Notes under the pieces: model-generated
Database searches by the model: none
What the model saw: the letters and a program-made list of their open reading frames with translations, nothing else
What the model was told of the DNA's origin: nothing
Shown here: positions 369 through 13,823 of the stretch, in pieces
Numbering within the stretch: the stretch's first letter is position 1
Layout of the letters: each line of letters opens with the position of its first letter
Made by a program: the position numbers and the translations under genes
Virus record (IMG/VR): IMGVR_UViG_2579778797_000009
DNA from: a virus
Taxonomy: Duplodnaviria; Heunggongvirae; Uroviricota; Caudoviricetes
DNA: 13,823 bases
Direction: 5' to 3' (one strand)

Positions 369-390
369 GATAAGGATTATCCAATTCTAA

Positions 391-500
391 AAAAAAAAGC
401 CCGGACGACTGTTCGGGCTTGTCTTTTTATATGTTGGAAAATCAGTGGCAATGCAATGGCCCAACAGAAAATAAAATCTGTGACAATAAAGGCATATAAC
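391..500 (-). ncRNA. micC: MicC small regulatory RNA (Hfq-dependent repressor of ompC), including its intrinsic terminator
   Basis: Reverse complement of 391-500 reads GTTATATGCCTTTATTGTCACAGATTTTATTTTCTGTTGGGCCATTGCATTGCCACTGATTTTCCAACATATAAAAAGACAAGCCCGAACAGTCGTCCGGGCTTTTTTTT, matching the recalled MicC sequence. The terminator hairpin is aagcccg/cgggctt (7 bp) followed by a U-run. Position divergent from ompN matches the known micC-ompN arrangement. Confidence 0.85.
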
Positions 501-727
501 CCGCGCAGAATAACGTATAGCAAATTAAAAGTATAATTTTTATTTTGTATGTATTATCTTCGATACATTCACCAGACTTATTATCATTTCAGAGGAATTA
601 TTTGATTAAGGTTTTACTTAAGGCGTAACAAATGATATTTATCGGCTAACTGAACTTCTCCTTTAGGATGTTTTCACTCCCCGAAATGGGGATAAAAGGC
701 AAATAAAATAACTAAAGGATTTATTCA

Positions 728-1861
728 ATGAAAAGCAAAGTACTGGCACTTTTAATTCCTGCCCTGCTCGCCGCAGGTGCTGCACATGCAGCCGAAGTTT
801 ATAATAAAGACGGCAACAAATTAGATCTGTATGGCAAAGTTGATGGCCTGCATTATTTTTCTGATAATTCAGCGAAAGATGGCGACCAGAGCTATGCGCG
901 TCTGGGTTTTAAAGGCGAAACCCAAATTAACGATCAACTCACTGGCTACGGTCAATGGGAATACAATATTCAGGCAAACAACACTGAATCTTCAAAAAAC
1001 CAGTCATGGACCCGTCTGGCATTTGCCGGGCTGAAATTTGCAGATTACGGTTCTTTCGATTACGGACGTAATTATGGCGTAATGTACGACATCGAAGGCT
1101 GGACCGATATGCTGCCTGAATTTGGCGGTGACTCTTATACCAATGCAGACAACTTTATGACTGGTCGAGCCAATGGCGTCGCGACTTATCGTAATACTGA
1201 TTTCTTCGGTCTGGTAAATGGTCTGAACTTCGCGGTGCAGTATCAAGGTAACAACGAAGGAGCCAGTAATGGTCAGGAAGGCACCAACAACGGACGTGAT
1301 GTTCGCCATGAAAACGGTGACGGCTGGGGTCTTTCCACAACATATGATTTAGGCATGGGCTTTAGCGCTGGTGCGGCATACACCTCTTCTGACCGCACCA
1401 ATGACCAGGTTAACCATACTGCGGCGGGTGGTGATAAAGCAGACGCGTGGACTGCTGGGCTAAAATACGATGCTAACAATATTTACCTGGCAACCATGTA
1501 TTCAGAAACGCGTAATATGACCCCGTTTGGCGACAGCGATTATGCTGTGGCAAACAAAACCCAGAATTTTGAAGTCACTGCACAGTACCAGTTTGATTTT
1601 GGTCTGCGTCCGGCAGTCTCTTTCCTGATGTCTAAAGGCCGTGACCTGCACGCTGCGGGTGGTGCAGACAACCCGGCAGGTGTTGATGATAAAGATCTGG
1701 TTAAATACGCCGATGTTGGCGCGACTTACTATTTCAATAAAAACATGTCCACCTACGTTGACTATAAAATCAACCTGTTGGATGAAGATGACAGCTTCTA
1801 CGCTGCCAATGGCATCTCTACCGATGATATTGTCGCTTTAGGTCTGGTTTATCAGTTCTAA
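728..1861 (+). CDS. ompN: Outer membrane general porin OmpN (OmpC/OmpF/PhoE family), 377 aa
   Basis: ATG at 728 with an AGGA-type Shine-Dalgarno upstream; signal peptide [21 protein letters not shown]; porin hallmarks (C-terminal ...GLVYQF, aromatic girdle). Identity as ompN rather than ompC/ompF rests on the flanking micC and uspF. Confidence 0.9.
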
Positions 1862-1920: not shown

Positions 1921-2436
<516 letters not shown>

Positions 2437-2443
2437 CACTAAC

Positions 2444-2468
2444 GCCCGCACATTGCTGCGGGCTTTTT
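2444..2468 (+). terminator. Intrinsic terminator after uspF
   Basis: Stem gcccgca (2444-2450) / tgcgggc (2457-2463), 6-nt loop, then ttttt at 2464-2468. Confidence 0.7.
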
Positions 2469-2611
2469 GATTCATTTCGCAAATGTGCTGACATTTTCCC
2501 CTCTAATCCGTACCATACACGCCACAGTTTTTTATATCAGATTTCTTATGCTGGGCGTTCCGGCATGACGCATACTCTTCTGATGCCATATAACGAATTG
2601 AGTCGCTTTTA

Positions 2612-2665
2612 ATGTCGCAAAATCAAGAAATTAGTAAGAAAGAACAATACAACCTGAACAAGTAA
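2612..2665 (+). pseudogene. ttcC: 5' fragment of ttcA (tRNA 2-thiocytidine synthetase) left at the prophage attachment junction (ttcC-like remnant)
   Basis: ATG at 2612 encodes MSQNQEISKKEQYNLNK then TAA. KKEQYNLNK matches the recalled N-terminus of TtcA, and sequence after 2665 has no ttcA character. Rac-type prophages are known to integrate at ttcA and leave a short duplicate fragment next to uspF. Confidence 0.5.
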
Positions 2666-2765
2666 GGGCAAAAATCACAACCATCTGACACATAAAGATT
2701 TTATTTATTTTTCAAAACGTTAAACAATATCAGCGACTACAATAACCTACGATAACCCACTCTTT

Positions 2766-2813
2766 TTTTGCCCCATTTTTGCCCCTTTTGCAGCGTTTTG
2801 CCCCATTTTTGCC
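2766..2813. repeat. Phased direct repeats of a T-tract + GCCCC motif at the prophage end
   Basis: GCCCC(A) starts at 2770, 2781 and 2800, with a degenerate gccac at 2811, each preceded by TTTT(T/G). Spacing of 11, 19 and 11 bp is roughly helical. Function unknown. Confidence 0.4.
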
Positions 2814-2938
2814 ACCACAAAAAATCCTAAACCACACAAATCTAAAACCTACAAATTGCCCCCTTGGATACTTTTCAATAGAATCTGTTCCGGCTGGAAA
2901 TCATTCAATACTCGCACTATCGAAAGTTATCCAGCCAA

Positions 2939-2983
2939 CCGCAGCACGTCCTGCATACGTCGTGTCTGCGGTTTTTCTTTTTC
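2939..2983 (+). terminator. Orphan plus-strand intrinsic terminator inside the prophage end
   Basis: Stem ccgcag-cacg (2939-2948) / cgtg-t-ctgcgg (2961-2971) with a 12-nt loop, followed by tttttctttttc at 2972-2983. The T-run is on the plus strand only, so it terminates rightward transcription, antisense to the tail-fibre genes. Confidence 0.5.
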
Positions 2984-2985
2984 GC

Positions 2986-3168
2986 TTACATTGTGTCTGG
3001 TTCTTCCGGCCACTCAATATCAGGTGCAGTTGATGTATCAACACGGTTCAACAACACCCGATACTTTTTCCATGCGGCCAGTAACGCTTTCTCTTCCTCC
3101 GTTGCGATTTCCAGCTCAACAACAGTCTGAACGTACCGGGAACAGCCTCCTTCAGAGCTTGAAGGATA
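2986..3168 (-). pseudogene. tfa: Remnant of the tail fibre assembly gene tfa (C-terminal about 45 codons recognisable)
   Basis: The 60 sense codons directly after the stf stop, in the same frame, translate [60 protein letters not shown]. The ...[23 protein letters not shown]... block matches the recalled conserved C-terminus of lambdoid Tfa (e.g. TfaR). No start codon or N-terminal part is present. Confidence 0.6.
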
Positions 3169-5658
3169 TCAATGTTCGCTTCCTGTTAACTGCCGGACAA
3201 GTGCAACCAGTTCGCTTACCTGATTTTCCAGAGTGCTGATCCGGGTGTCTGCTGTTGCCAGATTTTCACGTAGCGTTGTGTTTTCCTCTTCCAGCGCGGT
3301 AACGCGATCATCTGTTTCACGGGCGACCTGAACAAGTAAACCCGTCACGGCGGCGTAGTCAACATTAAGATAGCGCGTTTCTTCGCGTAGCTCGTTGCCG
3401 TCAACGGTCGGACCTTGTAACGCTTCACCGTAATGAGTAAACGATCCCACAGCTTCCGGTAGCGCCTCCATTACCTCCTGAGCGATAACGCCAGCGTAAG
3501 GTAGTCCGTTTTCCTTAAGGGTATAAGTGTACCCGTTCATTTTGCGGATGGCTTCAGTTGCATCACCTATAACCTGAATGTTGTCCTTCAGATCACGATC
3601 AGATGATTGGTTTATCGTTTCGCATGTAATGTGACCAGACGCTTTAAGATTTTTTACATCAAGTCTGTCGTTTGCAAAATTATATGAAATTGCGGTGCTG
3701 GTGCTTCCGGCATCATCATAATCGCTTTTATGAATAAACCAGTTTCCACCATTAGCAATGAGAGTATAAGTAGGCGTGTTAGCCGGGCGATCTGTTTCAT
3801 TAAATCTTATTGCTGGGTTAGCGCTCCTTATTTGTAAAGGTTTTTCAACCGTGGATTTCAGTATCGCACTATCTACAATTAAATTACCTTCTGAGTTAAT
3901 GTTTAGATATTTTGAAGCACCAGTTGAACCATCGTATGTAAACCTTATTGTTAATTGACCTGGCTCATTTGATAAAGTCTCAACATACATATCAGCACCA
4001 AGACGCACAGTGCTGTCAGTTGCTAACAGTCTTGTATGGAGAATACCACTAGATGTGTATGTATTGGTCGAATCACTATATCTATCAAGAAATAGACTGT
4101 TAAGTTGAGGGCTATTGCTCCTGCCTAATCCAAGATTCGTTCTGGCACCATCAATAGTTGCCGCACCAGTACCTCCGGCCGCGATCGAAAGCGGAATCCA
4201 TTCGCTATTCTCTGCATCGTAATAACCCCATGTTCCTGAATCGTAGATACTAAAAAATTTGCTTGCATTTTGACAATATACGCGTGTATTACCTGTTAGT
4301 TGAGTAAGCCTGTCCACTTCATCTTTTCTTGCGTGACGCGTCCACTGCGGGCCTATTGTCGGATTCCAGCGATAAGTATAAAGCGAGCGCGTAGCCCATC
4401 CCTGAAATACACCTGTATACGCTGGTGTTCCATCTACCTGACTAATAAACCCCGTAAGACTGCTTTCACCGGATGCAATCGATGGAAAGCCTTTTGCATT
4501 ACTCATAATGCGCATAAATCCGATATACCCTGATGGGTTGCCGGAAATATCAGGACAATCACGCGGGGCTGAGCCAAGACCGATATTATCGCCAACAATT
4601 ACTTGCGCCTGGTTGCGATAATTAAGTGCGTCCGCTGCAGATTTCGCCGCGTTTGTTTCACTGGATTTAGCATTAGTTTCGCTGGCTTTAGCGTTTGTTT
4701 CGCTGCTCTTTGCTGCTGCCTCGCTATTTTTCGCGTTGGTTTCTGATTTTTTGGCTGCTGTCGCGGAGTTTGCCGATGCAGTTTGTGAGGCCGCTGCCGC
4801 CTGTGCGCTGTTATCCGCATTCGTCTCAGACGTTTTTGCGGCCTTCGCGGAATTTCCTGCCGCCGTTGCCGAGGAAGCTGCACTACTGGCACTTGATGAT
4901 GCGTTCGTTTCTGATGATTTCGCTGCCTCTTTTGAGGCCGCCGCATCCCGGGCTGAGGTGGCAGCTTCTGACGCTTTCGTGGTCGCGGTGGATGCAGAAG
5001 TGGCTGCAGATTTTTGTGACGCTGCAGCATTCGTTTCTGACGTTTTCGCCGCACCGGCACTGGTAGCCGCCGCGCTTTTTGAGGACTCTGCAGCGGCAGC
5101 ACTTTTTGATGCTTCAGTAGCCTTTGTTGATGCCGTTCCTGCGCTGGAAGACGCTGACTGAGCCGACGTCGCGGCCTGCCCGGCTGATGTGCTGGCTGCA
5201 CGTGCTGAGCCTGCAGCATCAGTCGCATGGGTTGCCGCCTCACGGGCTGATGTGCCGGCATCGCTGGCTGACTTCTTCGCGGCTGCCGTGTTCTGTTCCA
5301 CTGCGGACGCGTTACGCGCCACCTCTTCCACCATCAGTTCAAAGCGGCGCAGTGCCTCCGGACGGGCATCATCCTCCGTCATGGCACCGAGAAAATCATT
5401 CAGTGTGCCCGGCTTTGAGTCCTCATATACGGTGATAATCCCGGCGTGTGACGGCGGGAATCCCTCCACCAACAGACTGACGCTGTACTGACCATACTCG
5501 ACGTCCATTGTGTAACGCCCGGCTTCATCCGGGTTTTCTGAGGCCACTGTGTTCACCACCACCGTGGTGCTGTTGCGCCTGGCCTTTAGCTGAATGGTGC
5601 AGTTTTGTATCGGCTTACCTGCGCCATCTTTCAGTACACCTGAAATCCGTACTGCCAT
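3169..5658 (-). CDS. stf: Side tail fibre protein, mosaic: lambda Stf-like N-terminus, Ala/Ser/Thr-rich repeat shaft, distinct distal domain, C-terminal intramolecular chaperone (peptidase S74-like) domain; 829 aa
   Basis: ATG at 5658 with a GGGGGGA Shine-Dalgarno. N-terminus MAVRISGVLKDGAGKPIQNCTIQLKARRNSTTVVVNTV... resembles recalled lambda Stf; repeated K(S/T)SETNA motifs across about residues 105-330; C-terminal 144 aa begin SDRDLKDNIQVIGDATEAIRKMNGYTYTLKENG..., the signature of self-cleaving fibre chaperone domains. Stop TGA at 3169-3171. Confidence 0.85.
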   Translation of the reverse strand: MAVRISGVLKDGAGKPIQNCTIQLKARRNSTTVVVNTVASENPDEAGRYTMDVEYGQYSVSLLVEGFPPSHAGIITVYEDSKPGTLNDFLGAMTEDDARPEALRRFELMVEEVARNASAVEQNTAAAKKSASDAGTSAREAATHATDAAGSARAASTSAGQAATSAQSASSSAGTASTKATEASKSAAAAESSKSAAATSAGAAKTSETNAAASQKSAATSASTATTKASEAATSARDAAASKEAAKSSETNASSSASSAASSATAAGNSAKAAKTSETNADNSAQAAAASQTASANSATAAKKSETNAKNSEAAAKSSETNAKASETNAKSSETNAAKSAADALNYRNQAQVIVGDNIGLGSAPRDCPDISGNPSGYIGFMRIMSNAKGFPSIASGESSLTGFISQVDGTPAYTGVFQGWATRSLYTYRWNPTIGPQWTRHARKDEVDRLTQLTGNTRVYCQNASKFFSIYDSGTWGYYDAENSEWIPLSIAAGGTGAATIDGARTNLGLGRSNSPQLNSLFLDRYSDSTNTYTSSGILHTRLLATDSTVRLGADMYVETLSNEPGQLTIRFTYDGSTGASKYLNINSEGNLIVDSAILKSTVEKPLQIRSANPAIRFNETDRPANTPTYTLIANGGNWFIHKSDYDDAGSTSTAISYNFANDRLDVKNLKASGHITCETINQSSDRDLKDNIQVIGDATEAIRKMNGYTYTLKENGLPYAGVIAQEVMEALPEAVGSFTHYGEALQGPTVDGNELREETRYLNVDYAAVTGLLVQVARETDDRVTALEEENTTLRENLATADTRISTLENQVSELVALVRQLTGSEH

Positions 5659-5722: not shown

Positions 5723-6322
5723 TCAGAATTTATAACCGACACCAACGATGAAACTGTTGGTACGCCAGTCACCGCTGCCGGAGCCTTCATAAGCGACGTC
5801 AACGGCCACGGATTCGGTCGGGTTAAACTGCACGCCAGCTCCCCACGCCAGAGACGTGTTGCTGTGGCGACCGTCATCACTTCCGGTCAGCACATCGTGC
5901 GTTTTCCCCTTGTTGTCAGTTACGCGGATATAATCCCCGGAGAAAGTCGACACACGGCTGTAAGCCATACCCGCCATCGCATACGCGCTGAACCATTCAT
6001 TCACGCGCACAGACGGCCCCGCCATCACGCTGAACCAGCGATTACGCACGGAATCCTCATGCCAGCGGGTATCGCTGTAATGCGTTTTTTGCTCATCTTC
6101 AGCGTTGGCATAACTGAATGACGTAATCAGCCCCAGCGTGTCCGTAAACTCATAACGGTATTTCACGTTAATCCCGTTCAGATTATCGCTGCCGGGAGCG
6201 TTCGTACGGGCATGAAGATACCCTGCGCTCAGTGTGGCCTGCTGCTCAGACGCCCATGCAGGCGCACCGGATACGGCCAGACAGATGGCTGCGGACAAAA
6301 TGGCTGCACAAACTTTACGCAT
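5723..6322 (-). CDS. lom: Lom outer membrane beta-barrel protein (Ail/Lom/PagC family), prophage moron; 199 aa
   Basis: ATG at 6322 with a GAGG Shine-Dalgarno. Signal peptide MRKVCAAILSAAICLAVSGAPAWA; motifs INVKYRYE and the C-terminal VAYEGSGSGDWRTNSFIVGVGYKF match recalled lambda Lom. Position between J and stf as in lambda. Confidence 0.9.
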   Translation of the reverse strand: MRKVCAAILSAAICLAVSGAPAWASEQQATLSAGYLHARTNAPGSDNLNGINVKYRYEFTDTLGLITSFSYANAEDEQKTHYSDTRWHEDSVRNRWFSVMAGPSVRVNEWFSAYAMAGMAYSRVSTFSGDYIRVTDNKGKTHDVLTGSDDGRHSNTSLAWGAGVQFNPTESVAVDVAYEGSGSGDWRTNSFIVGVGYKF

Positions 6323-6389: not shown

Positions 6390-9300
6390 TCAGCTGATAC
6401 TGATGCCTGCGGTGGCTTTCTTCATCACCACAACCAGCAAATCGCTGATACTTGCTGTGGGATACCAGTCATTTACCAGCCATGCTGACACCGAAAACTC
6501 CAGCGTCGTGTGACCGTGACCGGCAGGCATATCAATAACGCCACTGTAAATCAGCGTATTATCCAGCGCGGTACGGTTATAAATTTCAGCACCGTTTTTC
6601 CGCACTATCAGACGGCATGAGGAGTAAATATCAGTATGCTCTCTCTCATGTTTAGCGCCGCTGAATGCCACCGCCGGAATAACAATCTGCCGGTCAAACG
6701 GCTGATCGTCATAAATCCTGACGGTAATGGTCCCTGATGGCCACCGCTCCGGTGCCCGGGAGTCCCGCGGGAAAGCCTTACCCACTGTTTTGACAATATC
6801 GCCTTCAATCTGGTTGGCTGACAGTTTCCCTTTAATCTGACAGTTCTCATTTATCGTAACGTTGTTGAGCGTCCCGGCGTTCGCATTCACACTGCCACTG
6901 ATATCCGCATTTTTAGCGGTCAGCTTTCCGTCCGGTGTCAGGGAAAAGGCCGGAGGATTGCCGCCGCTGGTAATGGTGGGGGCCGTCAGGCGCTTCAGGA
7001 ACACTTCATTCATGAATATCTGATCACCCTGACCAACAAACATCGGTTTTGTGTTGCCATTCGCAGGATTAATCATCGCAATCCTGTCTGCCGCCAGCAG
7101 CACCTGACTCTGCATGCCGTCAGGGGTGTTCTCAATACCGGCACCAATACCCGCGATATAAAGGCGTCCGTCCTGCATCTGCTGCAGCTTCACAGCCCAC
7201 ATGCTGTTCAGGTTATTATTTGTATCAACCTGAACCTTCTGTATCTGCTGAATTGCAGCACTCTGGTCTTCCAGTTTCTTATTGACGGTCTGCGTGATTT
7301 CATTGCTGACATCCGTAATGGACGTCCTGATTTCAGCCAGGTCAGGCGCAAGCTGACCGTTATCAATCTGCGTCCACAGCTCCTGAGCCAGATGGGTTTT
7401 CCCTATCTCGCCTTTGAAAAAATCCAGATAACCGGATGCATCATCACTCGGCTGACCAACAGCCTCCACGAATGCCGATTTGCCAACGGTGTTCACACTG
7501 CGGATATAAAAGTAATAATCATGGCCCGGTTTGATATTGATACTGGCGGCTATCCAGTACAGCGCCGTACCAAGATAGCGTGCTGTGGTTTCAACCTGCC
7601 TGATATCCGCAATCCGCTTTTCCGAGAACCAGAACTCAAACTGTACCGTCGGATCATAAACCGCAAGATGCGGCGTGGCGGTTATCTGAAAATAGCCCGG
7701 TGTCAGCTCAATCCGAGACGGCGCTGCCGGTGCGGCAATCCGGAACGATACCGATGCCGGATCGCCCTGCTGTCCCCACGCATTTACCGCCCGGACTGTC
7801 AGCCTGTAGTTCCCCAGCGCCAGTTGCGTGAAGCGGTATGTAGTTTCCGTCGTCCGGGCCGTGCTGACCAGCCGCTCACTGCCGTCATCCGCTGCCACGG
7901 TCAGGCGAAGCATAAAGCTCACCCCCTTCACCACCTTCGGCGTGTCCCAGCGCGCCAGCACCTGATATTCCCCGCTGTCTGCGGTGACTTCGGCAGTCAG
8001 GTGCTGCACCGCTGGCGGCGTGACACCATTCACCGTGCCGCTCTGGTCGCCGTCAAAGTGCGCCCCGTTATCCACGATGGCCTCTTTTTCCGGCACATGC
8101 TGCACGGCGGTGATGGCATACGTGCCGTCGTCGTTCTCACGGATACTCACGCAGCGAAACAGTCGCTGGCGCAGCGTCGGCAGCTTCAGCCCCCATACGC
8201 TGTATTCAGCAACACCGTCAGGAACACGGCTCACTTTTACCTTCACGCCGTCGGTGGCGGACTGGACCTCCACGCTGACCGGATTGCCATTTCCGTCAAC
8301 CAGGCTTATCAGCGTGGTACCGGAGGATGGCAGCGTGATTTCACGGTCGAGCGTCAGCGTCCGGGTCTGGCTGTTCACCGCCAGCACGCGCCCACCGGTG
8401 CTGATACCCGCATAGTCATCATCACAGATTTCAATGACATCGCCCGGCACATGGCGAAGCCCTTCTGCGCCCACGCTGAAGTCCACGGTCTGCGTTTCCA
8501 GCAGTTCTGTTTTAATCAGCCACAGCCCGGCGCGGTGTGCCTGCCCCCGGCTGGTACAGCCAAAGGCATCCATCTTCGTGACATTACGACCATAACGGGC
8601 AATGGCCTGCGTATCTTCAACAAGCTCTGTCGCCGTCTCCCAGCCGTTGTCCGGGTCAATCCAGTTCACCTCAACGGCATTATGGCGGACCTTCAGGGCG
8701 CTGAAACTGTAGCGGAACGGCGCGCCATCATCCGGCATCACCACATTACTGCGGTTATAGGTCCACACCTTATCCGACGGCCGGTCCTGCACGAACGTCA
8801 GCGTCTGCCCGTTCCATACCGGCATACAGCGCATCGCCGAGCAGAAATCACTGAGCACATCCCACGCCTTACGCTGTGTGGTCAGCCAGGCATTACAGGT
8901 GATGCGCGGCTCCGTGCCGCCAAAGCCGTCCGGCACCGACTGGTCGCAGTACTGGCCGATGACATACAGCGCCCATTTATCCACATCCGCCGCACCAAGA
9001 CGTTTCCCCATGCCGTAGCGCGGGTGGGTCAGCATATCCCACAGACACCATGCCATGTTGTTGCTGTATGCTGGCTTAAACGTTCCGTCCCAGATACCGC
9101 TGTATTGCCGCGTCTGCGGGTTATAGTTCGACGGCACCTGCAGAATGCGCCCGCGAAGATGATAATTACGGCTCACCTGCTGGCTGCCGAACTGCTCCGA
9201 GTCCACCTGTACGCCGACCAGTGCCGTGTTCGGGTAGCACTGTTTCACATCGATGATTTCGGTGTATGACGACCAGAGCGTTTTGTTCTGCAGCTGGTCT

Positions 9301-9869
9301 GTGGTGCTGTCCGGCGTCATCCTGCGCATCCGGATGTTGAACGGGCGCGGCGGCAGGTTACCCACCACCACCGAGGCCAGATACTGCGAGGTGGTTTTGC
9401 CCTTAATGGTGATGTCTTTTTCCGTCACCCAGCCACCGTTACGTTGTATCTGAACCAGCAGGCGGACTTCCGACGGATTCCGGTCCCCCTTTGAGGTGGT
9501 TTCCACCAGTGCCTGCACACCGAAGGTAAAGCGCAGTCGGTCGATGTTTGCCGACGTGATGGCGCGGGTGATCGGCGTGTCGTATTTCACTTCCGTACCC
9601 AGCACCGTCTCGGAGCCGGAGGATTCAAATCCCTCCGGCGGAGTCTGCTCCTGCTCACCAGCCCGGAACACCACCGTGACACCGGCGATGTTGGTATTCC
9701 CCTCACTGTCCAGCACCGGCGTACTGTTCAGCAGCACGCTTTTTAATCCATCCACCGGACCTTCAATCGGCCCTTCACTGATGGCATCAATCACACTCAG
9801 CAACTGCGTGGATTTCAGGTTGTCCTTCGCTTCACGCGGGGTATGCCCCTTACTGCTGCCTTTACCCAT
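6390..9869 (-). CDS. J: Tail tip / host specificity protein J (central tail fibre), 1159 aa
   Basis: ATG at 9869. N-terminus [45 protein letters not shown]... and most of the first ~800 residues match recalled lambda gpJ. The C-terminal region appears divergent (see findings). Confidence 0.93.
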
Positions 9870-9929
9870 TCGTCACGCTCCATAAACGACAAAACCGCCC
9901 GCAGGCGGTTTCACATAAAACGTTTTTCA

Positions 9930-10571
9930 TCAGCGACCAATCACCACAACCTGACCACCATCACCTTCATCTGCTGTGCTGATCTCCTGAGATACCACCC
10001 GCGACCCCACACGCATTTCACCGTACAGAACGGGCAGGACATTGCCCTGGGCAACCATATTATCCAGTGAAGAAAAATAGGTGTTCTGTTTGCCGTTATC
10101 CGTTGTCTGTGTGCGGGGGGTTTTGGGTTTAGGGGCCAGCATCTGTGCAACACCGCCAAGCGTCATACTGGCACCGAGAGAAAACAGCAGATTACTCGCC
10201 ATAATTCCTCCCCCCGGCATCCATATAGCAACCGCCATAACAGCCGCCCCCAGCACAGCCTGAAACACACCGCCACTTTTGGCTCCTGCCAGACGCGGCA
10301 CGATATGGATCACAGCACCATTTGCCAGCGGTTCATTAAGACGGGCTGATAATTCCGTTTCACCTGTATCACGCCCGGCAATGCGTATCTGATACCAGCC
10401 GTCGCTCAGCTTCTGACGAAACGCCGGGATCTGCATGGCCAGCGCCCGGATGGCTTCAGCCCCCGTTTTTACACGAAGGTCGATGCGGCGGCCAAATCGT
10501 TGTAAATCCCCGTAAAGGCAGATGCGCGCCATGCCCGGTGACGCCAGAGGGAGTGTGTGCGTCGCTGCCAT
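9930..10571 (-). CDS. I: Tail tip assembly protein I, 213 aa
   Basis: ATG at 10571 with a GAGAGAGG-like Shine-Dalgarno. MAATHTLPLASPGMARICLYGDLQRFGRRIDLRVKTGAEAIRAL... matches recalled lambda gpI, with a Gly/Ala-rich hydrophobic segment and C-terminal ...EISTADEGDGGQVVVIGR. The start lies inside the 3' end of K in another frame. Confidence 0.85.
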   Translation of the reverse strand: MAATHTLPLASPGMARICLYGDLQRFGRRIDLRVKTGAEAIRALAMQIPAFRQKLSDGWYQIRIAGRDTGETELSARLNEPLANGAVIHIVPRLAGAKSGGVFQAVLGAAVMAVAIWMPGGGIMASNLLFSLGASMTLGGVAQMLAPKPKTPRTQTTDNGKQNTYFSSLDNMVAQGNVLPVLYGEMRVGSRVVSQEISTADEGDGGQVVVIGR

Positions 10572-11212
10572 TTGTCGGTATACCTCTCTCGTTTGCTCAG
10601 TTGTTCAGGAATATGGTGCAGCAGCTCGCCATCACCACAGTAAATGGCGGCATGATTCGGCACCGATGAACCAAAACAGCACAGCAGTACATCGCCCGGC
10701 TGCGCCGCTGACAACGGCACCTGATACAGCCCCGTTGCCTCCAGATTATCCAGATAGAGATTCTGGCCGTTACGCCACCAGCCATCCTCACGATGAAAAT
10801 CCGGCATCTCAATCCCCGCCAGATGATAAGCATCCCGGAACAGCGTGTAACAGTCCGTCACCCCGTGCTCAAAGCGCCGCCCGGTGAGATGCGGCACACA
10901 GCGGAACTTATGAATCGCCCCCCGGCAGACCAGCCACCACGGCAAATCACTCTGCACCTGCAGCCGCCGGTCAGCCTCACTCAGCCAGGGCAGACCACCG
11001 GGGTGGCTGTGGACCAGCGCCACAATCTCACCCTGCATTTCTGCCCGCAGCCAGTCCTCCGGAGCCATCCGGAAATAATCCTCCGGCTCACCGGAAATAT
11101 TCACGCAGGGATAATATCTTTCTCCCTCCGGCGTTCTCACCACGAAGCCGCACGACTCCGCTGGCGCACATCGCCGGGCGTGCGCCAGAATCGCTGATTC
11201 TGTCTCTGTCAT
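10469..11212 (-). CDS. K: Tail tip assembly protein K (MPN/JAB + NlpC/P60 domains), 247 aa
   Basis: ATG at 11212. MTETESAILAHARRCAPAESCGFVV... matches recalled lambda gpK. A JAMM-like HSHPGG...SEAD motif and NlpC/P60-like Cys/His context (GVTDCYTLF..., NHAAIY) are visible. Overlaps I by 103 nt out of frame. Confidence 0.88.
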   Translation of the reverse strand: MTETESAILAHARRCAPAESCGFVVRTPEGERYYPCVNISGEPEDYFRMAPEDWLRAEMQGEIVALVHSHPGGLPWLSEADRRLQVQSDLPWWLVCRGAIHKFRCVPHLTGRRFEHGVTDCYTLFRDAYHLAGIEMPDFHREDGWWRNGQNLYLDNLEATGLYQVPLSAAQPGDVLLCCFGSSVPNHAAIYCGDGELLHHIPEQLSKRERYTDKWQRRTHSLWRHRAWRASAFTGIYNDLAAASTFV

Positions 11213-11217
11213 GGGAT

Positions 11218-11916
11218 TTACTGCGAAAATTTGTTAATGGAAAGGAAGCCGCCAAAGTTGCCGACGTTATTGCGGAACTTACATCCGCTCAGGCATTTGC
11301 TGCATTTATCCTTCGTGATATCGGACGTCGGCTGGTCATATTCATCCGCGACCGCCGGACCGTGATAACCGCACTCATCGCCGCGATAGGTCCAGGTGCA
11401 GGTGTTGGCCAGCATGATACGTCCCGGAAAAACGGCACCATCCGTTTCAGTCGGAGTAGACAGCACAAAGGCCGCGCTAACCGCGTTCAGTTCGCTGCAC
11501 TGCTCGATGCGCCAGCGGCTGATCACCTCCTGCTCCGGATCGGCTTCGCTGTTTCCGTTGATGAAGTTCACCGCATCCAGAAAACGGGCGTAGACCTTAC
11601 GCCGGACCACTGTTCCGCCGACCAGACTCTGTAAATCCTCCACCATCCCGGTGACCATGCCGTGCAGGTTAGATACTTTCAGTGTTGGCCTTGCACTGGC
11701 ACCTTTGCCGTTCATCTCAAATCCACTCCCCTGAATGGGATAGGCCTGATACTGCCGACTCTGCCAGGTGACAGACTCACCTTTTTCATTCTGCTCATTG
11801 CAGAAAAAGTAGCGATCCCCGCCTACCTCTGTCAGGTCGATTTCCCAGAGCACCACGCTGGCCGACTGCTCCGCCCGAATGCATTCATTCAGTGTTTCCT
11901 GTTGTATGTCCTGCAT
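11218..11916 (-). CDS. L: Minor tail protein L, 232 aa
   Basis: ATG at 11916. MQDIQQETLNECIRAEQSASVVLWEIDLTEVGG... and the C-terminal cysteine cluster CTWTYRGDECGYHG...CSKCLSGCKF match recalled lambda gpL. Start overlaps the M stop (ATGA). Confidence 0.92.
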   Translation of the reverse strand: MQDIQQETLNECIRAEQSASVVLWEIDLTEVGGDRYFFCNEQNEKGESVTWQSRQYQAYPIQGSGFEMNGKGASARPTLKVSNLHGMVTGMVEDLQSLVGGTVVRRKVYARFLDAVNFINGNSEADPEQEVISRWRIEQCSELNAVSAAFVLSTPTETDGAVFPGRIMLANTCTWTYRGDECGYHGPAVADEYDQPTSDITKDKCSKCLSGCKFRNNVGNFGGFLSINKFSQ

Positions 11917-12254
11917 CAGATCACCACTTCGTCAAACTGACACGAAAAATCGGTATAGGTGATATGTTCTGTCGCTGACCACGTTCGACACACCACTCTG
12001 ATTTTTCTGTTAATACCCGGCGGGCGCCAAAAAAAAGATTTATAGCCTTCATGCCGGGCTAAAAATTTTTCAAATGAATCACGTTCATTCGCCTCAACTT
12101 TGAAATCACAGGTGAAAACGCGCAGAGAATGATTAAGTCCATTTGGACTTCGTTGCTCATAACCATCGCCAAATCTTACAATTTTTATCGATGGTTTATT
12201 TTCTGTTTTCATTCCATCCTCTGGTAACCAGTGAAATTCTTCCGTATTAGCCAC
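11916..12254 (-). CDS. M: Minor tail protein M (tail tip complex), divergent from lambda gpM; 112 aa
   Basis: Position between H and L with tight coupling (8-nt overlap with the H 3' end, ATGA overlap with L). Blocks VRFGDGYEQR, KSFFW and FDEVV align with recalled lambda gpM (VRFGDGYSQR, KSFLW, FEQVV), but overall similarity is low. Confidence 0.75.
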   Translation of the reverse strand: MANTEEFHWLPEDGMKTENKPSIKIVRFGDGYEQRSPNGLNHSLRVFTCDFKVEANERDSFEKFLARHEGYKSFFWRPPGINRKIRVVCRTWSATEHITYTDFSCQFDEVVI

Positions 12255-13823
12255 TTAACATTCCCCCATCACGTCGCATATTTAACAGATTGCCCTGCAC
12301 CCGCTGATCAACCATCCCCATAAGTGCTTTTATTGCCTGAGGGCCAATCTCTCCATTCTGGCCGTCATTTTGAATAGTGATTTGGTATACAGGGGCATAG
12401 GTAATATCTCCGCCTCCATTACCACTTTTACTATTAATAGCTCTGACACCAAGAGAACCATCGGAAGTTCGTGTTAATGGCATAATGGCTTCCGGTCCAG
12501 CCTCACCAAAAACACCAGCCCCTTTTGCAAAAGCAAAAAATTGCGGGGAATCATAAATACCGTTCGAATACGTGCTCAATGACGGAGACTCATAAACACC
12601 GCCCTTTGCATTCGGAATAAATTTACTAATAGCACTCCCGATAGTTCCTAAAATCCCCCCAGAAGAACTGTTACTAATGCTGTCGAAAATCCCAGTAATT
12701 GAAGCCTTTAATGCTATTCGACTAAGATCCGAAATCACGGAAGTAGCGAAAGAACGAAAATTTGCCTTGCCTGTCGTGACAAAATCACCCAGCGCATCGG
12801 TCATCCCATCAAACATCTGAGTCGTGGTTGATTTTATCTGCTCACTGATATCCTTAGTGTCATCCAGCCAGTTATTGAATCCCTGGGAGGCACCACTAAC
12901 CCAGTCTCCTGCCTGAATATCGAGCTGCTCGTTTTTCTGTCTGACAATTTCTTTTTCCCGTTCCAGAGCATCATTCAGAGCCTGCATTTTCTCTTGAAAA
13001 ACATGATCTGACATTCCACGGGATTTATCTGCATAGTCACGTTCAAGTTGCAGACGCTGATTGTTATATCCATGTTCAATCCGCAGTAATTCCTGCTGGC
13101 GTTGCTGATTTTTATCGCCAACCCCATAACCAGCAATCTGAATATCATACCCCTGCTGACGATTATCAATCGAAGCCTGCAATGAATCACGCCATGCTGT
13201 TATTTCGGCGGATTCCTTGATTAGCCTGTTATTCTTTTCAATCGCAACATTTTTCTCCATCAACGCGGTTATTTCTTCCCGGTGTAAGAGAAGCGATTTC
13301 TGATCCTGGGTTAATTTCGATGATGGTCGTGACTCCAGGTCGGCAATCCGCTGACGCCACTTAACCAGTTCCTGTTCAGAGGAACTTAATTTAACGGTCA
13401 ACTCAGCTTGTGAACTTAGTAACGCATTCTGTTGATTCAGATGATCAATCATTCGTTGGGCTGCATCATCAGAATAACCTTTCGCCTTTGGTTGCTTTGG
13501 ATCTTTATAACGCTCATTTATTTGAGCGATAAGATTATTATATTCTTCCTTTGAATACTGATTCTTTAGCTTTTCCAGTTTTGCAAGTTCACTAGCTCTC
13601 TGCTGCTCCCGGGTCTGATATTGTTTTGAAAAGGCATCTGCTCTCTGTCTGAGTTCAATTCCTTCCTGTTGTCGCTTGTTGTAATCGTTTATTGATGAAT
13701 TTAGTACGTCCTGAGCAATTTTTTCTGCTTGAAGTACGCCCAATTGCTGCTTTAATCGTGCCAGCCTTTTATTTTGAGCTCCGCCATCTCCAATGCCACC
13801 TAACCCGAAAACTCCGGGTCGGG
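12247..13823 (-). CDS. H: Tail tape measure protein H, C-terminal part (N-terminus outside the window)
   Basis: Minus-strand frame is open from the window end to the stop at 12247-12249. The apparent ORF-track start at 13743 is a TTG inside an open frame. Coiled-coil-rich sequence (...LQLERDYADKSRG..., ...ELVKWRQRIADLESR...) and position immediately upstream of M fit a tape measure. Confidence 0.8.
   Translation of the reverse strand, partial: RPGVFGLGGIGDGGAQNKRLARLKQQLGVLQAEKIAQDVLNSSINDYNKRQQEGIELRQRADAFSKQYQTREQQRASELAKLEKLKNQYSKEEYNNLIAQINERYKDPKQPKAKGYSDDAAQRMIDHLNQQNALLSSQAELTVKLSSSEQELVKWRQRIADLESRPSSKLTQDQKSLLLHREEITALMEKNVAIEKNNRLIKESAEITAWRDSLQASIDNRQQGYDIQIAGYGVGDKNQQRQQELLRIEHGYNNQRLQLERDYADKSRGMSDHVFQEKMQALNDALEREKEIVRQKNEQLDIQAGDWVSGASQGFNNWLDDTKDISEQIKSTTTQMFDGMTDALGDFVTTGKANFRSFATSVISDLSRIALKASITGIFDSISNSSSGGILGTIGSAISKFIPNAKGGVYESPSLSTYSNGIYDSPQFFAFAKGAGVFGEAGPEAIMPLTRTSDGSLGVRAINSKSGNGGGDITYAPVYQITIQNDGQNGEIGPQAIKALMGMVDQRVQGNLLNMRRDGGMLSG

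Follow-up and report, generated by a model that had tools for sequence, protein, structure and literature searches.

A junction within the start of ttcA, very probably the right-hand end of a Rac-family prophage, in a variant without cargo between attachment site and tail fibre gene

Phage lambda integrates between genes and has a b-region of several kilobases, an intact tfa gene and a core different from the one described below. The cryptic prophage Rac of Escherichia coli K-12 ends on its right-hand side at ttcC (b4638), a 51-bp pseudogene located at the boundary of the annotated prophage, between ynaM/ynaE and uspF. Rac lies between ttcA and ttcC' (Liu et al. 2015, PMC4632033). Its excision requires XisR, the named integrase being IntR, and alters four N-terminal residues of TtcA because attL and attR match imperfectly; the same holds for CP-933R and Sp10 (PMC4632033). 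XisR (YdaQ) was also found to bind an attR fragment (PMC4632033), and a 2019 review repeats this account (PMC6379469). In a 2021 study, an IHF consensus was marked at K-12 ttcA/ttcC, and IHF bound attL with no peak at attR (PMC8407004).

We compared with these systems a 13,823-nucleotide stretch of viral DNA (Caudoviricetes; IMG/VR record IMGVR_UViG_2579778797_000009), called the window throughout. We are highly confident, from the sequence comparisons that follow, that it contains the known Rac-family right-hand junction in the ttcA start, in a variant without cargo between the att site and the fibre gene. The identity of the junction is not new, as K-12 ttcC is annotated and both the junction and its effect on TtcA have been described (Liu et al. 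2015, PMC4632033).

Table 1. Features of the junction, the prophage arm and the adjoining tail genes (window coordinates).
Feature	Position	Strand	Evidence
uspF, last intact host gene before the junction	2002–2436	+	Pfam Usp E=3.6e-31; annotated at the same position in ET358, K-12 and ATCC 8739
uspF intrinsic terminator (host)	2444–2473	+	terminator scan: 7-pair stem with 6 G-C pairs, then TTTTTGATTC
Candidate orphaned native ttcA promoter, CTGACA-17-TACCAT	2488–2516	+	consensus scan only, 9/12 matches
ttcC, first 17 ttcA codons and phage stop	2612–2665	+	translation; identity to K-12 ttcC and ATCC 8739 TtcA
43-bp extended homology, host ttcA 5' end versus phage-borne ttcA 5' mimic	2619–2661		blastn against ET358 and K-12 attL: 93%, 3 mismatches
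Match to IHF consensus TAAnnnnTTGATW, TAATTTCTTGATT	2621–2633	-	read from sequence; same consensus as at K-12 ttcA/ttcC
26-bp perfect att core AAGAAAGAACAATACAACCTGAACAA	2636–2661		identical in window, ET358 and K-12 attL and attR, and ATCC 8739 attB
Conserved tail-side attP arm (prophage DNA)	2662–2816		alignable in 11/11 attR/attP copies
Inverted copy of arm motif, GGGCAAAAAT, adjoining the core	2666–2675	-	inverted repeats I3, I5, I6
Tandem TTTTGCCCC(A/T) motifs at 9–11 bp spacing, candidate IntR arm-type sites	2766–2816	+	repeat family D1
Short non-conserved spacer in place of b-region, with imperfect hairpin at 2892–2936	2817–2936		common only to ET358 and WEM25
Predicted intrinsic terminator, stem 2937–2973, then UUUUUCUUUUU	2937–2982	+	RNA fold
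tfa 3' remnant, last 48 codons and stop (2986–2988)	2986–3132	-	TfaR and Caudo_TAP matches
Side tail fibre, 829 aa, with C-terminal S74 intramolecular chaperone domain	3169–5658	-	Pfam phage_tail_N E=1.8e-70; Peptidase_S74 E=1.6e-14
lom	5723–6322	-	Pfam Ail_Lom E=1.4e-125
J	6390–9869	-	gpJ domains in near-identical locus L021

The open reading frame at the junction runs from ATG to TAA and encodes the 17-residue product MSQNQEISKKEQYNLNK*. This product is identical to the translation of K-12 ttcC and to residues 1–17 of TtcA in E. coli ATCC 8739, whose ttcA–uspF locus is unoccupied: ttcA lies directly beside uspF there, and TtcA begins with MSQNQEISKKEQYNLNKLQKRL. The intact ttcA that adjoins intR in lysogens such as K-12 and ET358 starts instead with MQENQQITKKEQYNLNK. 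Since the window ORF matches the empty-site start and the ttcA of lysogens differs from it, the ORF is the original 5' end of the host gene, displaced by integration. The flanking DNA (369–2661), which includes ompN (728–1861, plus strand) upstream of uspF, is 98.7–99.6% identical to E. coli ydbK/micC–ompN–uspF DNA, so the match of the ORF to ttcA is not due to chance.

Identity to the host continues through position 2661 and breaks at 2662 (G in the window versus A in attB), and the stop codon of ttcC, TAA at 2663–2665, is supplied by the phage just past the core. On this alignment, the junction fixes the prophage boundary at 2661/2662. A displaced 17-codon 5' end of ttcA beside uspF, closed by a phage stop codon, is the arrangement of a Rac-type attR, and the window matches the K-12 Rac attR base for base: the 17-residue ORF, the 26-bp core and the TAA after it are identical, and the host side is likewise uspF–ompN–micC. 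The original prediction, made from the letters of the window, had read the ORF as the start of TtcA, cut off by a stop exactly where host-like sequence ends, and had placed the prophage at the ttcA site used by Rac-type phages. All of this was borne out, including by the comparison it proposed with an unlysogenised ttcA–uspF locus, which in ATCC 8739 was checked base by base and is uninterrupted. The one peculiarity of the window at this end is a 1-bp deletion at 2606–2611, just upstream of the ttcC ATG, which gives CGCTTTT-AATG versus CGCTTTTAAATG in every other aligned attR or attB copy. The promoter-like site further upstream would, by its position, precede the ttcA start in strains with an empty site.

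We aligned the window attR with ET358 attL, K-12 attL, K-12 attR and ATCC 8739 attB. This five-way alignment contains one uninterrupted identity of 26 bp, at 2636–2661, which is also present in ET358 attR. To the left of it, the window attR follows attB with the 1-bp deletion as the sole difference, and attL has phage-type bases, the last difference being GT versus CA at 2634–2635. To the right, attR leaves attB at 2662. As judged from the alignment, strand exchange must have taken place within this core, which falls inside the interval of about 2630–2665 foreseen for it. The same 26 positions are annotated as attP in Rac-SA53 (KU052037.1), with two base differences in that phage. The prophage of ET358 spans ~52 kb from attR to xisR–intR–ttcA, and its far end has the same core. 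The duplication of the core that the original prediction expected at a distant ttcA/integrase junction was accordingly found in ET358 and K-12, which serve here as proxies and have the same 26 bp at the intR–ttcA junction; the window ends before its own attL, and for this genome we infer that intR–ttcA is present at the other end of the prophage.

Joining the host flank and core of the window to the ttcA body of ET358 recreates a natural, uninterrupted ttcA–uspF locus. Of 5426 complete E. coli genomes, 2489 have this rebuilt attB uninterrupted at a single site, with identities reaching 99.8%; a few of these matches are broken only by a small insertion (e.g., IS200C). The attR junction (2560–2820, at ≥80% coverage) was present in 1839 of the complete E. 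coli genomes. A scan of species-representative genomes found the junction in Escherichia and Shigella only, a scan that demanded an exact match and so says nothing about more distant hosts.

These comparisons, which supply the junction, core, empty site, arm conservation and domains, combined with the literature on K-12, which supplies the dependence on IntR and XisR and the change in TtcA, suggest the following mechanism. The tyrosine integrase IntR would recombine the attP of a Rac-family phage with host attB in codons 9–17 of ttcA. The attP would bring a start codon of its own together with a mimic of ttcA codons 1–17, and exchange would occur inside the 26-bp perfect identity. At the int-proximal junction, the phage-borne 5' end would be fused to the ttcA body, keeping the gene intact with four N-terminal residues changed. 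The first 17 codons of native ttcA would be stranded beside uspF along with their promoter and ribosome site; there the phage TAA right after the core would turn them into the pseudogene ttcC. The tandem TTTGCCCC repeats in the arm at 2662–2816 probably bind the N-terminal domain of IntR, and the fibre's own S74 domain would replace the Tfa chaperone, leaving the 3' end of tfa as a fossil.

The phage-side arm of the window is homologous to that of the Rac attR, being 98.7% identical to K-12 as far as 2832. The 11 copies that could be aligned are drawn from E. coli, S. flexneri, E. ruysiae and an entry submitted under the name Salmonella phage SPF_0923 (host genus unconfirmed), and past ~2816–2832 they diverge into three unrelated continuations. 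K-12-type copies pass almost straight to a terminator and then to ynaM–ynaE–pinR–tfaR; sit-type copies have the 3.77-kb sitABCD between the equivalents of 2820 and 2893; and the window, ET358 and WEM25 have a short spacer only. The tail-side arm of Rac thus ends near +155 bp, and the spot just beyond it is a point at which cargo is swapped (sitABCD, pinR–ynaE, or nothing).

The arm contains copies of the motif TTTTGCCCC(A/T) at 2766, 2777, 2796 and 2807. The exact sequence TTTGCCCC occurs three times within 38 bp, as compared to 0.74 occurrences expected in the whole window. Two more motif copies are located in the int-side arm of ET358, K-12 and Rac-SA53, after the intR stop codon and before the phage ttcA mimic. 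In the attP of phage PHB10, the flanks have diverged, yet two motifs before the core and three ~105 bp after it have been kept. As in a lambda-type attP, then, a short motif distinct from the core is repeated in both arms and conserved among related phages. Lineages differ in how many TTTTGCCCC units they have, with one extra in E. ruysiae (locus L013) and ~30 bp of the array missing from S. flexneri (locus L010). In the searchable literature, taken without subscription journals, we found no description of Rac arm-type sites and no IntR footprint. The chances seem to us about even that the TTTGCCCC repeats, in both arms and as the inverted copy, are undescribed arm-type sites of the Rac integrase, that their copy number (~2 to 6) may tune integration and excision, and that the cargo-free window presents the minimal functional tail-side arm of ~155 bp. 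These conserved arm repeats are the sole modestly new item at this locus.

A search of a phage collection with the rebuilt attP returned prophage-form records as its close matches, and a true contiguous attP only in the divergent phage PHB10 (MK524177.1). This attP has, in order, int, two arm motifs, a mimic of the ttcA 5' end, ~105 bp and three motifs, which is the layout expected of an attP that would give the window junction. PHB10 differs from the window in that its integrase 3' end and attP are ~78% identical, its core departs at two positions, and its cargo past the arm consists of an SOS-response-associated peptidase and a cold-shock-like protein. Rac-SA53 was deposited in prophage form with host ttcA attached. 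The record of Salmonella phage SPF_0923 (ON032529.1, locus L014) was rejected as evidence of an attP; it is really an attR with ydbK–ompN–uspF flanks and sitABCD. Although deposited as a complete phage genome, ON032529.1 is a prophage excerpt with chromosomal flanks and not a packaged genome. At 6655–7560 of locus L010 (S. flexneri SFBU1023, CP182556.1), an intR truncated by IS1 precedes a contiguous attP, comprising int-side arm, core and tail-side arm, and sitABCD comes next. This order suggests that the sit island of this Shigella strain may come from a circularly permuted or tandem Rac-like element and not from a simple attR.

Between the end of the arm at ~2816 and the fibre gene lie ~170 bp without a recognisable gene, including a plus-strand terminator, and then the 48-codon remnant of tfa. 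The segment 2817–2936 has no Pfam-recognisable coding content, and the K-12 alignment jumps from 2832 to 2935. The terminator is missed by a simple scan, its loop being larger than the scan allows, and was found by folding: the fold of 2930–2990 has an energy of -19 kcal/mol (z = -4.4), and none of 200 shuffles was as stable. The segment 2935–2977 also occurs in K-12 and, in locus L003, downstream of sitD. By its position the terminator would stop transcripts from the candidate ttcA promoter and, in sit-bearing relatives, those from sitD. The tfa remnant follows the fibre stop codon in the same frame and is 76% identical to TfaR residues 147–191. A full-length Tfa (Caudo_TAP) domain with its own start codon is absent; the minus strand at 2989–3168, directly after the fibre stop, matches only positions 86–130 of 131, the last third of the Caudo_TAP profile. 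At the equivalent place in ET358, FDAARGOS_1058 and NDM1, the remnant is annotated as a partial tail fiber assembly pseudogene.

No ORF in 2662–3168 encodes a serine recombinase (Pin/Gin-type invertase) next to tfa/stf, a gene present elsewhere as pinR in K-12 and as a fragment in ET358, and neither sitABCD nor ynaE lies between the arm and the fibre of the window. The only two plus-strand ORFs in this interval, of 84 and 127 codons, run across the arm; neither matched a Pfam family, and we rejected them as genes and took them as chance. This check of ORFs and Pfam families upheld the view that, as compared to the stfR–tfaR–pinR–ynaE(–ynaM) order of K-12, the window has no invertase, no intact tfa and essentially no b-region. 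The length first given for the arm, ~320 bp beyond the tail fibre, needs amending: it is right when counted from the stop codon of the tfa remnant (324 bp to the core) and too short when counted from that of the fibre gene (3169–3171), for which the distance to the core end is 507 bp.

The tail genes are located on the strand opposite to ttcC and begin with the fibre gene, lom and J, followed by I, K, L and M; the tape-measure gene comes last and is only partly inside the window. The others are all full-length ORFs. The block, from tape measure to fibre, faces the junction end, so that the tail genes abut attR as in lambda, just as the original prediction described. An ORF of 625 codons on the plus strand (7392–9269), antisense inside J and unusually long, is probably an artefact of codon bias.

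S74-type fibres fold without a separate assembly protein. The Peptidase_S74 domain of the window fibre (PF13884; residues 686–737 of 829) scores 54.3 bits, well above the cut-off of 22, and is of the endosialidase type. With a self-chaperone in the fibre, tfa would probably be dispensable and its fossil tolerated, and the S74 domain probably accounts for the tolerated loss of tfa. The identical 829-amino acid fibre occurs in at least four chromosomal neighbourhoods, namely pot/pepT, bioA/ybhB, uspF with sitABCD, and uspF without sitABCD, and prophages next to dusA also have this tfa remnant and terminator after fibres of the S74 type. Because the tfa fossil travels with the S74 module, the missing intact tfa and invertase are a property of the module and not a sign of decay peculiar to this prophage. 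Loci L016, L017, L019, L020 and L021 (fibre at 10001–12490 or 9265–11754) have the identical fibre and near-identical J and lom in differing neighbourhoods. As judged from these identities, prophages in different chromosomal neighbourhoods have exchanged the whole tail-tip module very recently.

Beyond the shared junction, the K-12 Rac prophage differs from the window in several respects. K-12 continues with ynaM, ynaE, pinR, an intact tfaR and stfR, whereas the window has ~170 bp, the tfa remnant and an S74-type fibre; and K-12 has lost most tail genes and has IS5 in lomR, whereas the tail ORFs wholly inside the window are full-length. The Rac-like prophages of ET358 and WEM25 are 99.6–99.9% identical to the window over 2300–3072, that is, through uspF, core, arm and spacer and into the tfa remnant. 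Beyond 3072, ET358 differs, having a recombinase fragment and opposed fibre/tfa cassettes of the invertible-segment type in place of the S74 fibre. Rac-like prophages bearing sitABCD (FDAARGOS_1058; L019, GCA_019374725.1) share the attR, arm, terminator, tfa remnant and S74 fibre, with a tail region 95–98.5% identical to that of the window. They differ in carrying the 3.77-kb sitABCD, an iron/manganese transporter operon, where the window has 72 unrelated bases (2821–2892). The lambda attR (POB') resembles the window in that J–lom–stf face the att site, arm motifs lie on both sides of a short core and an IHF-like consensus is present, but integration in the window is inside a coding sequence for which the phage supplies a replacement 5' end. 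The segment 2740–3300 does not occur as one piece in any of the 5426 complete E. coli genomes, nor does the whole arrangement. A draft assembly (GCA_000627235.1, contig JJLL01000134.1) aligns without gaps to the full 13,823 bases, including IS1, and differs at 10 positions (99.93% identity). The arrangement is uncommon, not unique, and is ordinary lambdoid mosaicism.

Other explanations can be offered for how the junction arose and for what its ORF does. The 43 bp of 93% identity between the phage and host copies of the ttcA start might have served RecA-dependent homologous recombination in place of an integrase. However, the crossover lies to the right of the three mismatches and inside the same 26 bp in every lysogen compared, the core of the divergent phage PHB10 sits between conserved arm repeats, and K-12 Rac requires XisR to excise and has IntR as its named integrase (PMC4632033); we find this route scarcely credible. 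The ORF could also be expressed and functional, as a micro-ORF or leader of 17 residues served by the orphaned ttcA promoter and the terminator at 2937–2982. Its promoter-like site, start codon and frame are kept and identical in K-12, ET358, Shigella and E. ruysiae, and a plus-strand terminator lies downstream. Such conservation is expected from recent common descent and from sequence constraint on attR, though, and the window, alone among the copies, has lost 1 bp between the likely ribosome site and the ATG. With K-12 ttcC also annotated as a pseudogene, a functional micro-ORF appears highly unlikely, and we keep to integration by IntR and to ttcC as the displaced start of ttcA.

The state and history of the element are a separate matter. 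The junction could be a stranded relic whose integrase end or attL was lost by deletion or IS1 rearrangement, in which case its attR would have ceased to be part of an element able to excise. Defects are common among Rac-type elements, and the K-12 prophage, which lacks most structural genes and has IS5 in lomR, is one example; an IS1 lies 2.2 kb from the junction, and in the related S. flexneri element IS1 truncates intR. We nevertheless consider a relic rather unlikely, given that the tail genes wholly in the window are all full-length ORFs and that its attR arm barely differs from that of ET358, where xisR–intR–ttcA and a ~52-kb prophage are retained. Even so, a relic would alter the state of the element and leave the origin of the junction unchanged. 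A secondary deletion from an ancestor with sitABCD or pinR–ynaE, as opposed to an original cargo-less state later filled in other lineages, is a more serious possibility, though we lean against it. In its favor, the tfa remnant attests to a loss of DNA on the side between fibre and att site, locus L019 carries sitABCD exactly between the equivalents of 2820 and 2893 beside tail genes 98.5% identical to those of the window, and the exact arrangement at 2740–3300 is found in none of the complete genomes. But the remnant and terminator also travel with the S74 fibre module beside dusA, the pot genes and bioA, where sit never was; ET358 and WEM25 share the sit-less spacer at 2817–2892; and the window has 72 bp in place of sit, with no clean deletion scar.

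Taking the junction as a Rac-family attR, the 17-codon ORF should be annotated as ttcC and not as a gene, which matters little beyond correct annotation. TtcA of this strain is predicted to have the phage-type N-terminus (MQENQQIT...), a form associated in carbenicillin with a slight difference in fitness (Liu et al. 2015, PMC4632033). The arm end and the cargo swap point are useful for scoring the carriage of sit, which is associated with virulence, and for delimiting prophages automatically.

At its other end, the window begins inside an IS1 element (1–368), with an ORF for the C-terminal part of InsB at 87–353 and the terminal inverted repeat ending at 368. This accounts for thousands of plasmid matches to the window. 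IS1 is inserted between the end of ydbK/nifJ and micC, and in most E. coli the match begins only at 369; the presence of IS1 shows that the region has evidently been rearranged at least once nearby. The small RNA gene micC (383–503, minus strand; Rfam RF00121, 122 bits) is intact 15 bp from the end of IS1. As the insertion is on the terminator (3') side of micC, the micC promoter is probably unaffected.
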